From a virus: 64,000 bases of DNA. Positions 7,583 to 13,104 of this stretch are shown one piece after another. The DNA lies in IMG/VR virus record IMGVR_UViG_3300011189_000006, positions 1 to 64,000 of that record; one strand, 5' to 3'. Position numbers and translations under genes: made by a program. Position 1 is the stretch's first letter. Each line of letters starts with the position of its first letter. The notes under the pieces were generated by a model that saw nothing but the letters and a program-made list of their open reading frames with translations, was not told the DNA's origin and made no database searches.

Positions 7583-8329
7583 TTAAAATTGTTTTTCATA
7601 AGATTCTTTTCTTAAATCAAGAATTCTCTCTATATAACCATTCCTTCTTAAAAGTTTAAAAACTAAATTTTTTAGAGAATACTCACCACTTTCACTTTCT
7701 AGACCAGACTTTCTATAATTTTTTATCTTATCCCAGAGTTTTTTAACACGCTTTTTATATTCATTATAATCATATTTATCTATTTCGTCTTCCAAGTCAT
7801 CAACTAGCATCATAATACCCTTAGCCTTTTCTTTAATATCCATCTCGTCTGGTATAAAGTCAACCTTAACAGGTTCTATATTCCATTTACTATTAAGCAC
7901 TGAATACACACCAGAAGACCTATGTGGTTCTTTGATATCTTGTATATAGACTTCAACTTCAAAACCATTGACATATAAATCATATGATTTATTCCATAGG
8001 TTTTTAGCAGAATCCGTAAACTTTTTAACTAGTTTAGTATCTGAATTAACCTTTTCAAAATCTATTATTATATGTAAATCAAAGTCTGAATATTTTTCAG
8101 ACCAATTAAAGTTAGCCAGTGATCCAGTTAAGGTAATATCATCTATTTCAACATTTAGGCTAGTTGTATTATAAAAGTCTTGTGATATAGTTAATAACTT
8201 TTCACGCACCTCTTCTTTCATACTTTTATCTTCTTCCCAAATTTTGGTGTTTAATTCATCTTTTATGTGAAAAGATTTAACTGCATCGAAATCTTTTTCC
8301 ACAAATTCTAAAAACTTAGTTACTTTCAT
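7583..8329 (-). CDS. Pol-beta superfamily nucleotidyltransferase
   Basis: LTGSLANFNW..YSDFDLH (GS...DxD) and a third acidic residue in VEVYIQD. Confidence 0.75.
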   Translation of the reverse strand: MKVTKFLEFVEKDFDAVKSFHIKDELNTKIWEEDKSMKEEVREKLLTISQDFYNTTSLNVEIDDITLTGSLANFNWSEKYSDFDLHIIIDFEKVNSDTKLVKKFTDSAKNLWNKSYDLYVNGFEVEVYIQDIKEPHRSSGVYSVLNSKWNIEPVKVDFIPDEMDIKEKAKGIMMLVDDLEDEIDKYDYNEYKKRVKKLWDKIKNYRKSGLESESGEYSLKNLVFKLLRRNGYIERILDLRKESYEKQF

Positions 8330-8408
8330 AATTATATATATTAAAATATTAACACCACATTTCTAAACTTATTGTTTTAAATTAATATAATACTAAATAA
8401 CAAAAGAT

Positions 8409-8618
8409 ATGAAACTTAGAGATAATGGAATTATAACAAAGGCAGACTATATTGGCAAGACTTTGGGCGAAGCTTCTAAACATGCAGAAAATGGTGGGTA
8501 TGTGACAAGAGTGGTTAGTAACAATGGCCATTCTCCTATGTTAGATATGGATGCTAATCAGAATAGAATGAATTTTATTATTAGTAACGATAGAGTTACT
8601 GATGTATATGGTGGATAA
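8409..8618 (+). CDS. Small protein resembling the peptidase inhibitor I78/potato-I fold
   Basis: YIGKT..EA...RVV..G...MD...RMNF.....VT.V..G pattern. Confidence 0.5.
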   Translation: MKLRDNGIITKADYIGKTLGEASKHAENGGYVTRVVSNNGHSPMLDMDANQNRMNFIISNDRVTDVYGG

Positions 8619-8641
8619 TTAAAAAATAATTATAATAAAAC

Positions 8642-8672
8642 TTGTGAGAACCATTTAATAGTTTTATATTTG
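8642..8672 (+). promoter_or_regulatory. Bacteroidota-type housekeeping promoter (-33 TTG / -7 TATATTTG)
   Basis: TTG at 8642-8644, 20-nt spacer, TATATTTG at 8665-8672, upstream of the tRNA locus. Confidence 0.6.
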
Positions 8673-8742
8673 CATAGTAAAATAAATATAAGATTTTTAA
8701 AGAAAAGTATAAAGAGAGAAAATAATTTTAATATATAGAATA

Positions 8743-8841
8743 ATGAGAACAATTAACACATTTAAGCATTTTAGTAAAAAGTCGTTTTGGTTTAGTCCAA
8801 ACTCGGTAAAGAATGTTATTTGTTCTAATTTTATGATTTGA
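8743..8841 (+). CDS. Attenuator leader peptide 1 (MRTINTFKHFSKKSFWFSPNSVKNVICSNFMI)
   Basis: ATG 5 nt after TTAATATATA motif; FKHFSKKSFWF block matches downstream tRNA-Lys/Phe/His/Trp; followed by a terminator. Confidence 0.75.
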   Translation: MRTINTFKHFSKKSFWFSPNSVKNVICSNFMI

Positions 8842-8899
8842 TATAAAAATAGTAAAAAATATATTTAAAGCCGAGCTTCGAAAGAAATTCGGCTTTTTT
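8781..8899 (+). promoter_or_regulatory. Transcription attenuator 1 (anti-antiterminator / antiterminator / terminator)
   Basis: Terminator AAAGCCGAG(8867-8875)...TTCGGCTTTTTT. Leader segment CTCGGT (8802-8807) can pair with GCCGAG. TTTGG/CCAAA hairpin lies in the leader. Confidence 0.7.
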
Positions 8900-8908
8900 G
8901 TTTTATAT

Positions 8909-8982
8909 AATTCTGTAGCTCAGCTGGTTAGAGCATCTGTCTTTTAAACAGAGGGTCGTGGGTTCGAATCCCACCAGGATTA
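8909..8982 (+). tRNA. tRNA-Lys(TTT)
   Basis: Acceptor AATTCTG/CAGGATT; anticodon arm TCTGT-CTTTTAA-ACAGA; GGTTCGAATCC T-arm; no encoded CCA. Confidence 0.95.
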
Positions 8983-8987
8983 CACAT

Positions 8988-9060
8988 GGAGTAGTAGCTC
9001 AGCTGGTAGAGCACTTGGTTGAAGACCAAGGTGTCGTGGGTTCGAACCCCACCTTCTCCA
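8988..9060 (+). tRNA. tRNA-Phe(GAA)
   Basis: CTTGG-TTGAAGA-CCAAG anticodon arm; GGTTCGAACCC T-arm. Confidence 0.95.
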
Positions 9061-9071
9061 CAAGATTAAAT

Positions 9072-9145
9072 GGTGTGTGTAGCTCAGTAGGTAGAGCGTT
9101 GGCTTGTGGTGCCAAAGGTCGGGGGTTCGAAACCCCTCATACACC
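9072..9145 (+). tRNA. tRNA-His(GTG)
   Basis: G-1:C73 pair; TTGGC-TTGTGGT-GCCAA anticodon arm. Confidence 0.95.
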
Positions 9146-9154
9146 CTAAATAAT

Positions 9155-9226
9155 ACGGACGTAGTTCAAAGGCTAGAATAACGATCTCCAAAATCGTAGA
9201 TGAGATTTCGAAATTCTCCGTCCGTG
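9155..9226 (+). tRNA. tRNA-Trp(CCA)
   Basis: ACGGACG/CGTCCGT acceptor; ACGAT-CTCCAAA-ATCGT anticodon arm. Confidence 0.9.
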
Positions 9227-9257
9227 CTAGAGTTTAATAAAAATAATATATAGTATA

Positions 9258-9329
9258 ATGAAACTTATAAACACATCGAGTAGTTCAAGTCGCTTAATAA
9301 TTTCGAAAGAGATTCGATTGTGTGTGTAA
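9258..9329 (+). CDS. Attenuator leader peptide 2 (MKLINTSSSSSRLIISKEIRLCV)
   Basis: ATG 5 nt after TAATATATA; codons TCG AGT AGT TCA AGT CGC match downstream tRNA-Ser(TGA), Ser(GCT) and Arg(ACG). Confidence 0.8.
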   Translation: MKLINTSSSSSRLIISKEIRLCV

Positions 9330-9381
9330 TTATTTTTTAAAAATATTATTAGCCTTTCGAATTTATTTGAAAGGCTTTTTT
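9302..9381 (+). promoter_or_regulatory. Transcription attenuator 2
   Basis: 11-bp terminator AGCCTTTCGAA/TTTGAAAGGCT plus T6; leader TTCGAAAG (9302-9309) is perfectly complementary to terminator 5' arm CTTTCGAA (9354-9361). Confidence 0.8.
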
Positions 9382-9453
9382 AGTTCTATATTTCAACGGA
9401 TAGAATACTCGGCTACGGACCGAGAGATAGGGGTTCGAATCCTCTTAGAACTA
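9382..9453 (+). tRNA. tRNA-Arg(ACG)
   Basis: AGTTCTA/TAGAACT acceptor; CTCGG-CTACGGA-CCGAG anticodon arm. Confidence 0.9.
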
Positions 9454-9461
9454 CTAATTAT

Positions 9462-9551
9462 GGAAGATTTATCCGAAAGATTCTGGGTAGCGGAGACGGT
9501 CTTGAAAACCGTTTGCTTTAGGGCGTGTGGGTTCGAATCCCACATCTTCCG
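9462..9551 (+). tRNA. tRNA-Ser(TGA)
   Basis: GGAAGAT/ATCTTCC acceptor; ACGGT-CTTGAAA-ACCGT; long variable arm; enlarged D-loop. Confidence 0.9.
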
Positions 9552-9563
9552 CATAATTTTAAT

Positions 9564-9652
9564 GGAAGCGTACTCAATGTTGGCAAAGAGGCTGGTTTGC
9601 TAAACCAGTAGGTCTGTAAAAGGGCGAGTGGGATCGACACCCACCGTTTCCG
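9564..9652 (+). tRNA. tRNA-Ser(GCT)
   Basis: GGAAGCG/CGTTTCC acceptor; CTGGT-TTGCTAA-ACCAG; long variable arm. Confidence 0.9.
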
Positions 9653-11296
9653 CTAGTTTTTTATTAGTTCCTTTAATTCGTCTATTTGCTGTTGTAAGCT
9701 ATCTATCTTATTATTTTGCTCTTTATTCTCATTTTCCTGCTCTGCAAGTTTTAGAGATAAGAAACTATTATAATTAACAGACATCATTCCGTCATCCTCT
9801 GGTTTTTTTACAACTTCTGGATTTATCTTTTCTATTTCTTGGGCTATAGTACCATATACAGTAATCCCTGGTTGGGTTTTTAATTCATAAGAATATACTG
9901 ATTTTGATATCTTTTTAATATTGGTTTTAAGCCTTTTGTCAGAGCCTTCGAAAAAGTTATCTGCTGTAAAATCTCCACTCCAATCTAAATTTTTATCAGA
10001 TGTTAAAGCAAGCCTACCATTATTATCTACTCCAGAGTTTGATGCTAAGTGAAAATCTATATATCTTCCAATCTCCATTAATCCATCGGCACCAACATCA
10101 GGTATAAATGGCCAAGGTATATTTGCATTAGCACCTGCTATACTTAAACCATTTAAAGATGAAGCATCTACATTTGTAATCCGTGATCCATTTCCAATAA
10201 AGTTTTGTGCTGTAACATCGCCGAATGCTCTAAAATTACCCGACCCTCTACTAAATATAAACCTATTTAAAAATGAAGAGCCCGCGTCACGATATATAAT
10301 ATCAGCTCCCATATCAGCTATTAAAGTTGTTCCTGTAGCTTGGTATTTTAAATGACCTACATTACCAAAAGGTGAAGTACCACCTATTTTAAATTGAGAA
10401 TTATCGTTAATAGTTAGTGCACTTCCTGAAAAATTATCACTGGTATTGCTTCTTAAAAAATCATTACTATCTAAACTATCTAAAGTTGCAGCATCTACAT
10501 TTGTAATCTGTGATCCATTTCCAATAAAGTTTTGTGCTGTAACATCGCCATTATAATCCAAATTACCGTTTTCTCTTAAAGTTAGAGATTTGTTAGAAGC
10601 ATCATTTCGTATGCTAAGATCCGAGAACATAGTTATAGGAAATCCAATATAACCTTTGCGTGTTGTTCCGTTAGATTGATAAAATGAATAAAAAGAAGAG
10701 CTATTACTTCCTGGAAGACCTGTTTCAGTAGAACCCTTAATACCAGATCCATTTGGTATTAAAATTTTACTAGAAAAAGTCTTCTCACCATTAATAGTTT
10801 CAACTACACTTCCAGTCGCCCTAACAAAATTCGTACTATCAAAACCATCTAAAGTTTCTGCATCCGTACTTACAGAAATAATACCGTTTGAAATAATAAC
10901 TCCACTACCAATTTTTACACCTCCTAGAACTGCATCCGTTGCTGTTTGTAGGGTATAACCTACACCTGGTATCCTCTCCCAAAAAGTACCATTGTGAATA
11001 ACGTCATCTCCAACATCATATGATATAGACTTATTTCCAGAACTTCCTGAATCGTCTAAATCAGAAGTACCTGCTGTTGTAACTCTATAGTAATGTCCTT
11101 GAACGCCTGTACTATCTGCTAAAGTAGGAGTATTTGTATCTGCGTCCCAAGTGCCTTTATAAACTTGTGATGCAGATATTGGTGTCCATGTTGCGTTTCC
11201 ATCAGAGTCTGTTTTTAAAAAGTAACCATCTACTGCTCCTGATGTTAATTTAATTGTAGGTGCTTCTACGATATCTGCTATTAATTTAGTTGCCAT
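9653..11296 (-). CDS. Tail fibre protein with C-terminal intramolecular chaperone (peptidase S74)
   Basis: SDKRLKTNI...G.IAQEIE...PEVV...VNY followed by a coiled coil; DA.TLDG repeats. Confidence 0.8.
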   Translation of the reverse strand: MATKLIADIVEAPTIKLTSGAVDGYFLKTDSDGNATWTPISASQVYKGTWDADTNTPTLADSTGVQGHYYRVTTAGTSDLDDSGSSGNKSISYDVGDDVIHNGTFWERIPGVGYTLQTATDAVLGGVKIGSGVIISNGIISVSTDAETLDGFDSTNFVRATGSVVETINGEKTFSSKILIPNGSGIKGSTETGLPGSNSSSFYSFYQSNGTTRKGYIGFPITMFSDLSIRNDASNKSLTLRENGNLDYNGDVTAQNFIGNGSQITNVDAATLDSLDSNDFLRSNTSDNFSGSALTINDNSQFKIGGTSPFGNVGHLKYQATGTTLIADMGADIIYRDAGSSFLNRFIFSRGSGNFRAFGDVTAQNFIGNGSRITNVDASSLNGLSIAGANANIPWPFIPDVGADGLMEIGRYIDFHLASNSGVDNNGRLALTSDKNLDWSGDFTADNFFEGSDKRLKTNIKKISKSVYSYELKTQPGITVYGTIAQEIEKINPEVVKKPEDDGMMSVNYNSFLSLKLAEQENENKEQNNKIDSLQQQIDELKELIKN

Positions 11297-11325: not shown

Positions 11326-13104
11326 TTAAACGATTAGGCTTGTCCAATTATTTTGTATTATTGTTATCCAAGCATAAGTATTATCATTGGTTTGCATACA
11401 CATCTCACAATATGTATTACCCCCATCTTTTCTATACCTCATTGTGCCTACCTTATCTAAAGAGGGTGCATCAGTATCATCAGACATCTTTATTCCACCA
11501 TCAACATCTAATTTAGATTTAGGGTTTGTAGTTCCTATACCTACTTTACCTTCTATAGATTGAGTTGTCTCCCCTGTTTTCTTAACTACATTGTTGTCCA
11601 ATGCATAATCACCTGCTGGTTGTATACCTGCTTGTACTAAGGTATTATTTATCCAAGCAGAACCATTCCATTTAAGTATTTCACCATTGGTATTACTTGT
11701 TATTATTACATTGTCATGTGAATCTAGTGAATGACCTAAAGGTGTTCTAGCATCAGATAGTCTAAAATCGTCTCCTTCTGTTGCTGTATTTGCTGTTGTA
11801 CCATATATTACTGCAAAAGTTCTTACCACAGTTCCATTATAAATATCACCTGATAAACCTGCACCAGGTGTTAAATTTTCATGAACATGATCTAGTAAAG
11901 AATACCTACCATCTAAAGATGTAGTAATATCAGGTAAGCTTCCAGTTCTTCCTGCAGTTAAGATACCAGTAGTATTACCAAAGGATAGAGCATCAACATA
12001 TTCATCTCCGTCTGGTGGTGAGTCTAAATCAGTCCAAGTAGTAGATATTGTACTACCATCTCTTTGTGTAAGCGTGATAGTTTTAGTATTAGTACCCGTA
12101 ACTGCCAATGAAGTAATACCATCATTATAAGAAGTATCCCATTGAGATTGTTTAGTTAATGTTGATATTCCGTAACCTTCTGTTGTAGATAGTACACCTG
12201 AACTGTTATTATAATCTAAACCTAAAACAGACTCACTGAAAGTTGAAGCTATATTAATTACACCTCCAGCTGAATAACTTATACCTATTCCATCACCCTC
12301 TACTAAATCTATAGAGTCATCTGAAAATATTCCTTTTCTTTGAAAACCGTTGCTTTTTAAATTCCAAGAGACGTAGTTATCATAATTACCTACTGGTTGT
12401 ATACCTGCTTGTGCTAAGGTATTATTTATCCAAGCAGAACCATTCCATTTAAGTATTTCACCATTGGTATTACTTGTTATTGTTACATTATTGTGTGAAT
12501 CTAGCGAATGTGATATTGGAGCATATCTACCATCTAAATCAACCGAATTTAAACCACTTACATGACCGAACGTATCCAAAGTAACATCTTGAATAACGAC
12601 ACCATTTGAATTATTAATAGAAGCTTGAGATGATGTGTCTGTGTGTGAAAATACAGTACCTGATAAATCTAAACCATTCCCTGCTGTATATGTTGTATTT
12701 GTATTAGTAACTGTCTCAGTAGCAGTAGTAATACCAGTTATATGACCAAAATCATCTAAAACTATATCTTGGATATAAGTTCTACCAGAATTATTACTGG
12801 AACCTTGTGAAGAAGTATCTTCATGACTAAAGACTAATCCTGTTAAATCTAATCCTGCACCAGGAGTGTAAGTAGTATCATTAGAGCTTGTTCCAGCACC
12901 TATTAGACTTCTAATTTCACTTGCAGTTATACCTGAATTTAAGCTTGGTGTTGATCCATTAGAAGTTATCGCAGGTGTACCTGTGTCTGAAACTAGTCCT
13001 GATATGCTTATGGAATTATCTACAAGCAAAACAATATTATCAGCATCTATATTACTATAGTCTGTTTCTGATGTGTTGTCTAATAAGTATATTTGGTGTT
13101 TCAT
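11326..13104 (-). CDS. Tail fibre-like structural protein with internal duplications
   Basis: Duplicated HSLDSHxNVxITSNTNGEILKWNGSAWINNTL and TYTxGxGLDL..FSH.DTSSQ blocks; VGIGTTNP motif. Confidence 0.7.
   Translation of the reverse strand: MKHQIYLLDNTSETDYSNIDADNIVLLVDNSISISGLVSDTGTPAITSNGSTPSLNSGITASEIRSLIGAGTSSNDTTYTPGAGLDLTGLVFSHEDTSSQGSSNNSGRTYIQDIVLDDFGHITGITTATETVTNTNTTYTAGNGLDLSGTVFSHTDTSSQASINNSNGVVIQDVTLDTFGHVSGLNSVDLDGRYAPISHSLDSHNNVTITSNTNGEILKWNGSAWINNTLAQAGIQPVGNYDNYVSWNLKSNGFQRKGIFSDDSIDLVEGDGIGISYSAGGVINIASTFSESVLGLDYNNSSGVLSTTEGYGISTLTKQSQWDTSYNDGITSLAVTGTNTKTITLTQRDGSTISTTWTDLDSPPDGDEYVDALSFGNTTGILTAGRTGSLPDITTSLDGRYSLLDHVHENLTPGAGLSGDIYNGTVVRTFAVIYGTTANTATEGDDFRLSDARTPLGHSLDSHDNVIITSNTNGEILKWNGSAWINNTLVQAGIQPAGDYALDNNVVKKTGETTQSIEGKVGIGTTNPKSKLDVDGGIKMSDDTDAPSLDKVGTMRYRKDGGNTYCEMCMQTNDNTYAWITIIQNNWTSLIV

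Follow-up and report, generated by a model that had tools for sequence, protein, structure and literature searches.

A putative tRNA-responsive leader-peptide attenuator in front of four phage tRNA genes

Why would a phage place, directly in front of a group of its tRNA genes, a short open reading frame (ORF) composed largely of the codons that these tRNAs read? The question is raised by IMG/VR virus record IMGVR_UViG_3300011189_000006. The window analyzed here comprises the first 64,000 nt of this phage contig, which is 91 kb long, is about 42% complete by estimate and has a G+C content of 30%. Seven tRNA genes on its + strand lie in two groups between a 69-codon ORF (8409-8618) and a tail-fibre gene (9653-11296), and each group is headed by a leader ORF and a hairpin, termed here cassette 1 and cassette 2. 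Cassette 1 has a leader ORF whose codons match the anticodons of the downstream tRNAs, a terminator, an alternative pairing that covaries with it, and control codons of regular placement relative to this pairing. We consider it likely that the element is a ribosome-mediated leader-peptide transcription attenuator, responsive to tRNA, that gates the four phage tRNA genes of the first group. To judge from the sequence, the phage probably confines production of these tRNAs to times when ribosomes lack them. A preliminary description had proposed a multivalent OR-gate attenuator of tRNA genes at this site, a proposal that our analysis supports, given that everything it predicts at the sequence level (a recurring codon match, covariation and suitable geometry) was found. 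The features concerned are the following.

8729-8737, + strand: TAATATATA gene-start motif, 5 nt 5' of the leader ATG and kept before the leaders of the homologues
8743-8841, + strand: leader peptide ORF 1, MRTINTFKHFSKKSFWFSPNSVKNVICSNFMI, 32 codons plus TGA, with homologous ORFs in 13 further phage contigs
8761-8796, + strand: control block, codons 7-18, FKHFSKKSFWFS, each codon cognate to a tRNA of cassette 1 or 2
8782-8806, + strand: predicted 1:2 hairpin, TCG.TTTGG / CCAAA..CGG, -5.2 kcal/mol alone, including the Trp codon
8802-8875, + strand: predicted antiterminator hairpin, CTCGGT core at 8802-8807 with GCCGAG at 8870-8875, -15.6 kcal/mol
8867-8899, + strand: intrinsic terminator, 9-bp stem AAAGCCGAG/TTCGGCTTT, T6 then GTTTT
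8909-8983, + strand: tRNA-Lys(UUU), ARAGORN and Rfam, 74 bits, beginning 9 nt past the T-run
8988-9061, + strand: tRNA-Phe(GAA), ARAGORN and Rfam, 68 bits
9073-9146, + strand: tRNA-His(GUG), ARAGORN and Rfam, 66 bits
9155-9227, + strand: tRNA-Trp(CCA), ARAGORN and Rfam, 55 bits
9382-9653, + strand: group 2, tRNA-Arg(ACG), tRNA-Ser(UGA) and tRNA-Ser(GCU), ARAGORN and Rfam

Codons 7-17 of leader 1 read F K H F S K K S F W F, which amounts to 4 Phe, 3 Lys, 1 His, 1 Trp and 2 Ser codons. The first four counts match exactly those of the preliminary description, which had also named tRNA-Lys, Phe, His and Trp as the next four genes, in agreement with ARAGORN and Rfam. Nine of these 11 codons are cognate to tRNAs of cassette 1. 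Among 30,152 stop-free stretches of 11 codons in the three frames of the + strand, the one at 8761 is the sole one with at least nine Lys, Phe, His or Trp codons; these codons make up 15.3% of the long ORFs of the phage, giving a binomial expectation of 1.8e-6 per stretch. The Ser codons of the leader are of two types, AGT and TCG, which fit tRNA-Ser(GCU) and tRNA-Ser(UGA) of cassette 2, so that codons 7-18 are covered, 12/12, by the seven tRNAs of the phage.

The second cassette extends this match to the level of isoacceptors. It lies directly 3' of cassette 1 and follows the same plan.

9244-9381, + strand: cassette 2
9244-9252, + strand: TAATATATA motif of cassette 2
9258-9329, + strand: leader 2, MKLINTSSSSSRLIISKEIRLCV
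9311-9318, + strand: antiterminator segment of cassette 2, AGATTCGA
9351-9381, + strand: terminator of cassette 2

Six consecutive Ser/Arg codons that group 2 can read were found only at 9276, within leader 2. Leader 2 contains CGC and CGA, which account for 1% and 3% of the Arg codons of the phage (AGA, 71%), and TCG, present in both leaders, accounts for 3% of its Ser codons. All of these genome-rare codons of the control blocks are cognate to encoded tRNAs. The tRNA-Arg(ACG) gene itself (9382-9454) is of separate interest: CGU, CGC and CGA together constitute only 9% of the Arg codons of the phage, and the gene is therefore not explained by simple compensation for its own codon use. An alternative genetic code was considered and rejected, as reading TGA or TAG as sense adds just about 10% to the long-ORF total.

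The leader ORF has a credible start. TAATATATA occurs in 35 copies in the window against 8.8 expected, a four-fold enrichment, and stands 4-5 nt ahead of the ATG in many long genes (230-536 aa) and in both leaders, indicating that the leaders bear the normal gene-start signal of the phage; the ATG of the ORF at 8743-8841 thus appears in the same context as those of long genes. The motif is likely either a phage promoter for near-leaderless mRNAs or a translation-start signal. Examples are found at 8729, 9244, 23521, 49908, 53774 and 60938, and on the minus strand at 8343, 27081, 33295 and 62561; the distance to the start codons of long genes is either 4-5 nt or about 16-25 nt. A further signal lies upstream of the leader.

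8641-8673, + strand: candidate Bacteroidota-like host-type promoter, CTTG..N20..TATATTTG, -7 box at 8666-8673, about 70 nt 5' of the ATG

This candidate has one mismatch to TTTG-N20-TAnnTTTG, and a TTTG..TAnATTTG pair is equally placed in most homologues. The motif shows no enrichment in the window (16 found, 18 expected), and we therefore keep the host-type promoter just as a positionally conserved candidate.

Between leader 1 and the tRNA genes there is an intrinsic terminator. The stem AAAGCCGAG/TTCGGCTTT put forward in the preliminary description was recovered at 8867-8899, followed by six T, with a folding energy of -13.7 to -14.1 kcal/mol; its loop of 12 nt contains a 3-bp inner helix, and owing to this loop length it was missed by a simple scan. 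In an alignment of 14 sequences, comprising the window and 13 homologues, pairing in the stem amounts to 91%. Both partners are altered in seven of its 12 pairs, a degree of covariation reached in 0 of 500 shuffles. The T-run is 9 nt from tRNA-Lys in the window and 4-31 nt from the first tRNA in most homologues, leaving no space for a separate promoter. In four homologues the distance is about 91-101 nt, and the gap is occupied by a tRNA-like element without an ARAGORN call. This element of about 90 nt, between the terminator and the first ARAGORN tRNA (L018:18096-18174; L022, about 11336-11435; L027; L113; such labels denote related phages throughout), combines an acceptor and a T arm with a GUG anticodon loop, and its D-arm region carries a large insertion. 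Several such elements are overlooked by ARAGORN in related phages.

An attenuator further needs a competing fold, and folding predicts one that employs the 5' arm of the terminator. As long as the 3' arm is still to be transcribed, folding at minimum energy gives the long irregular hairpin at 8802-8875, in which the CTCGGT/GCCGAG core is extended by inner A-U helices (8811-8821 with 8857-8866) and the leader stop codon lies in the apical loop. At this stage the core is predicted to pair with a probability of 0.86-0.95 when no ribosome footprint is masked, and of 0.96-1.0 for a ribosome stalled at any of codons 7-16, while the terminator prevails in the equilibrium fold of the full-length leader. 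The 2:3 pairing of CTCGGT with GCCGAG suggested earlier is therefore predicted here as well, and it is also borne out by the swap test described below. Two associated expectations did not hold: rather than having 6-8 bp, the antiterminator is this long hairpin, and rather than being weaker than that of cassette 2, it is predicted to be the more stable of the two (-15.6 vs -12.3 kcal/mol).

Comparison among relatives provides evidence for the alternative pairing. Immediately 3' of the W-F-S codons, the leader contains a segment that resembles the 3' arm of the terminator and varies in step with the 5' arm, as seen in the following pairs.

Window: leader segment CTCGGT, terminator 5' arm GCCGAG
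Most relatives: leader segment AGTTCGG.ACT, terminator 5' arm AGTCCGAACT
L019, L068 and L096: leader segment GAACTTGG, terminator 5' arm CCAAGTTC
L018: leader segment ATTCGA, terminator 5' arm TCGAAT
L088: leader segment GGTTCGTGCT, terminator 5' arm AGCTCGAACC

In a register-free swap test, each leader segment was combined with each terminator arm, using one representative for each of six terminator classes. The correct assignment summed to -75.2 kcal/mol and ranked first among 720 permutations, whose mean was -48.6. This test replaced a fixed-column count, since MAFFT had placed L018, L088 and L091 one column out of register.

The earlier 1:2 pairing fared less uniformly. The hairpin at 8782-8806 is present in the minimum-energy fold of the full leader, and a TGG...CCA hairpin with varying flanks can be read from the alignment, with no formal count, in most homologues. 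It does not sequester segment 2: in the predicted folds it coexists with the antiterminator without blocking it. We therefore read it as possibly a pause or synchronizing hairpin rather than an anti-antiterminator.

The terminator and its predicted competitor also bear on what the output of such a switch would be. A stalled ribosome might sense the cognate tRNAs as proposed, with the hairpin serving as a processing or stability element and the output being Rho access, RNase processing or precursor stability. Lys mini-leaders of related phages lend this some weight. MKTK[LR]KYKR is a 9-codon mini-leader whose hairpin begins at the stop codon and lacks a T-run, so at least one cassette type cannot use a canonical intrinsic terminator and may work by something other than intrinsic termination. 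In cassette 1 and all 13 homologues, however, a G-C-rich stem is directly followed by at least five T, the stem covaries, and the leader segment mimics the 3' arm of the terminator, which is a signature of termination and antitermination. We regard a non-termination output as unlikely for cassette 1.

If cassette 1 is an attenuator, the position of the ribosome on the leader should decide between the two folds. We masked a ribosome footprint from -15 to +13 relative to the A-site nucleotide, at each codon in turn, and calculated the sequestration of the terminator 5' arm before its partner exists. In silico, the arm of the window is sequestered with P >=0.9 while the A site is at any of codons 2-16, and P falls to about 0 once it reaches codon 17, such that a stalled ribosome favours the antiterminator and an onward ribosome disrupts it. 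In 14/14 sequences P stays at >=0.9 with the A site at codons up to 16-17, and the step falls at the next codon, right after K-W-(F); in cassette 2 it falls after codon 13. The end of the control block coincides with the point where a stalled ribosome begins to cover the antiterminator, and Phe-17 falls at the boundary. According to this model, it would make no difference at which control codon, up to and including Trp-16, the ribosome stalls, which fits OR-gate logic. The folding model is thermodynamic and ignores sterics, kinetics and RNA polymerase pausing.

Homologues of leader 1 were collected in two ways. A blastn search found the leader in two uncultured GenBank phages of 630-640 kb, LR756502 and LR745206, which we take to belong to huge-phage clades assigned to Bacteroidota hosts; what else it matched with the leader alone in the GenBank phage collection was short, A-T-rich and due to chance. 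Scanning IMG/VR with two patterns and retaining loci with downstream tRNAs added 11 distinct homologues, for a total of 13 (14 sequences with the window), as well as further homologues of leader 2. A separate IMG/VR pattern, taken from the leader start, yielded mostly chance matches, plus two near-identical relatives. A search of cellular genomes with the cassette-2 pattern returned four chance matches in unrelated high-G+C genes, none with tRNAs, and gave no host assignment. All leader-1 homologues share the block HKHFSKS[SN]KWFS, which the search pattern contained in part, so that ascertainment accounts for some of its invariance. Next comes, in each case, a hairpin with a T-run, and beyond it stand tRNAs drawn from His, Phe, Lys and Trp, to which L091 adds Ser tRNAs. 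Variation at free positions is mostly synonymous, in Lys and Ser codons (AAA/AAG, TCG/TCA/TCT, AGC to TCG/TCA).

Two relatives from IMG/VR that share 97-98% identity with the window across about 4 kb allowed a comparison of selection. All 316/316 nt of the two leader-plus-terminator regions are unchanged, including 99/99 nt of leader ORF 1, compared with 9/210 differences in the upstream ORF and 4-7/319 in the group-1 tRNAs. This pattern indicates that the leader-plus-terminator regions are under purifying selection.

Related phages carry several types of cassette, each with a leader enriched for the amino acids of its own tRNAs.

Leader HKHFSKSSKWFS: His, Lys, Phe and Trp tRNAs downstream
SSSSSR-type leader: Arg(ACG) and Ser tRNAs downstream
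MKTK[LR]KYKR leader: 3-4 tRNA-Lys downstream (L018:18591-18661, L017:7492-7564, L022:12437-12506 and others)
Asn-rich leader: 2 tRNA-Asn downstream
IEAIGYAYEAG leader: Tyr, Glu, Ile(UAU), Gly and Ala tRNAs downstream
Sites of the Asn-rich and IEAIGYAYEAG-type cassettes: L019, 6265-6381 (- strand); L068, 2453-2539; L096, 9336-9422; L018, 33949-34041 and 34657-34740; L076, 10349-10420 and 10800-10880

Where the Tyr/Glu/Ile/Gly/Ala cluster is split (L018 and L076), the leader is split with it, a Y/E-rich leader preceding Glu/Tyr and an I/G/A-rich leader preceding Ile/Gly/Ala. Scoring of every leader against every tRNA cluster of its genome placed the true assignment alone at the top in six genomes, among 120 permutations in L018 and among 6 in each of the other five.

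These data speak to a simpler view of the locus, in which the ORF is untranslated or gives rise to a small functional peptide, the terminator is constitutive and leaky and sets a fixed low tRNA level, and the codon match reflects coincidence or shared ancestry. Conservation of the block HKHFSKSSKWFS at the amino-acid level is what a functional peptide would show. The permutation result excludes coincidence and does not sit easily with an ordinary small protein gene. Nor would coincidence account for the existence of five or more cassette types, each enriched for the amino acids of its own tRNAs, or for leaders that split along with their clusters. This view also leaves unexplained the genome-rare codons cognate to encoded tRNAs, the covarying antiterminator and the position of the control codons relative to it in 14/14 sequences. 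We judge it very unlikely.

The attenuator reading enables us to propose a putative model for the control of cassette 1. Initially, transcription would start upstream of the leader, at the TAATATATA motif or at the host-type promoter about 70 nt upstream, and a ribosome would begin to read the 32-codon leader, the translation of which we infer. A shortage of charged tRNA-Lys, Phe, His, Trp or Ser would make the ribosome stall within codons 7-16, leaving CTCGGT and the following A-U-rich stretch unpaired. The free segment would then pair with the emerging 5' arm of the terminator to form the antiterminator at 8802-8875, and RNA polymerase would continue into the genes of tRNA-Lys, Phe, His and Trp and onward to cassette 2. 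With smooth decoding, by contrast, the ribosome would unzip the 5' strand of the hairpin and halt at the TGA in the apical loop; the terminator at 8867-8899 would form, and the transcript would stop 9 nt short of the first tRNA. A stall at one control codon would suffice, yielding OR logic. Finally, the newly made tRNAs would lift the stall and so close the feedback loop. We infer from this scheme that read-through would respond to tRNA supply.

Taking the cassettes together, we lean slightly towards a broader view, in which the tRNA supply of large phages of Bacteroidota-type hosts is modular and runs as a closed loop. A separate checklist leader would stand before every block of tRNA genes, reporting in real time on the very tRNAs of that block, and the block would be transcribed only if these are limiting, with 4-6 tRNA inputs per leader acting as an OR gate, and the system would serve both as a homeostat and as a sensor of tRNA-targeting defence. 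In such a system, tRNAs could become limiting through codon demand, host shut-off or host anticodon nucleases.

Several points weigh against the attenuator reading. Folding predicts the antiterminator even without any ribosome (P 0.92), and the default of an untranslated leader would therefore be read-through. The G-C core of the antiterminator in the window has only 6 bp, the remainder being A-U. In the fixed-column alignment the antiterminator is 76% paired, compared with 72% in shuffles, an excess that is small because the pairing register shifts between classes. The search pattern was taken from the leader, so the invariance of the codons TTT-AGT-AAA and TGG-TTT-AG is partly due to ascertainment. 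A sigma-70-like hexamer pair at 8838-8865 could start transcripts inside the terminator and thus bypass it; matches of this kind are frequent in the 30% G+C DNA of this phage. The model assumes that transcription and translation are coupled in the host. Lastly, amino-acid starvation would trip the same switch, though extra tRNA would be of no help.

The last point may be taken further, to a reading in which the attenuator responds chiefly to a lack of amino acids or to generally slowed translation in the infected cell rather than to the tRNA pool, with the tRNA genes merely incidental downstream. A hungry codon cannot distinguish a missing amino acid from a missing tRNA, and the same holds for classical leaders. 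Extra tRNA is no cure for amino-acid starvation, however, which makes a codon-by-codon match hard to explain, and the match is at the isoacceptor level and tracks tRNA content across genomes. We consider this reading very unlikely, and the least probable of those weighed here; attenuation in response to tRNA supply remains our preferred interpretation.

Two neighbouring genes were also noted. The tail-fibre-like protein of 547 aa (9653-11296, - strand) has a C-terminal Peptidase_S74 intramolecular chaperone domain, and its gene is convergent with the tRNA genes and abuts the last of them. On the other side, a 248-aa gene (7583-8329, - strand) adjoins the cassettes and begins 5 nt past a TAATATATA motif. 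In its product, a GS...DxD nucleotidyltransferase motif is accompanied by a match to PF22600, a poly(A)-polymerase-like palm domain, that is weak and below threshold (E 0.009), and the gene may encode a tRNA or RNA nucleotidyltransferase.

If the model is true, phage tRNAs are supplied on demand and not constitutively, which bears on why phages carry tRNAs, whether for codon compensation or for replacing tRNAs destroyed by host defences. The leaders would form a readable list of the tRNAs that the phage treats as limiting, here including tRNA-Arg(ACG), whose codons are 9% of Arg. The cassettes are compact (about 160 nt) and modular, and are potential sensors of individual tRNA availability.

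Bacterial tRNA genes are generally considered to be regulated at their promoters, through growth-rate and stringent control. To our knowledge, and in the literature searched, no tRNA gene, cellular or viral, has been reported under codon-specific feedback, and a full-text literature search found no report of leader-peptide or attenuator control of tRNA genes. An Rfam cmscan of 8500-9800 at E up to 1 returned only the tRNAs and sub-threshold noise, with no leader family, whether His, Trp, Thr, Leu, Phe or another, no T-box and no other cis-regulatory family. The mechanism proposed is classical ribosome-mediated attenuation; its tRNA-gene target and closed feedback loop are absent from the literature searched.

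The enterobacterial thr (Thr and Ile), ilvGMEDA (Ile/Leu/Val), trp, his, leu and phe leaders likewise combine a short translated ORF, in which control codons abound, with an intrinsic terminator and a mutually exclusive antiterminator that uses the 5' arm and is freed by a stall. The thr and ilvGMEDA leaders are closest in logic to the phage element, as several amino acids are sensed by one leader. Enterobacterial leaders regulate biosynthetic enzymes, whereas the phage element would regulate tRNAs, so that its product acts directly on the sensor. The phage ORF, moreover, is phage-encoded and, unlike those leaders, spans the whole 5' strand of the predicted antiterminator, with its stop codon in the apical loop. 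The pheL leader is treated in PMC3082878.

For an inducible tRNA array, the nearest precedent is the trn operon of Anabaena PCC 7120, a long tRNA array that is silent until translation is impaired (PMC8421152). It resembles the present case as an accessory array induced by translational stress. Its control is exerted by a protein repressor, TrcR, which binds direct repeats in the promoter, and has no codon-specific input; no leader, attenuator or terminator is mentioned (PMC10272220). Phage tRNAs are reported to counter tRNA-targeting defences (PMC10264068), as does tRNA-Lys of T5 against PARIS (PMC11464382). These reports provide a motive for replacing specific tRNAs, including Lys, on demand; they address the action of the tRNAs rather than regulation of their genes, and describe no sensor.

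For control of the translation apparatus, the nearest precedents are the leader peptides of synthetase genes and the T-boxes. The leaders of pheST (pheM) and of Firmicute hisS/hisZ (PMC2965389) likewise subject a component of the translation apparatus, one serving the same amino acid, to leader-peptide attenuation. They are cellular and control a charging enzyme with one amino acid per leader, in contrast to the phage element, which would control tRNA genes. T-box riboswitches likewise report the state of a specific tRNA by transcription antitermination. They bind the uncharged tRNA directly, without an ORF, and regulate synthetase and amino-acid genes, whereas the phage element is built around an ORF that is predicted to be translated.

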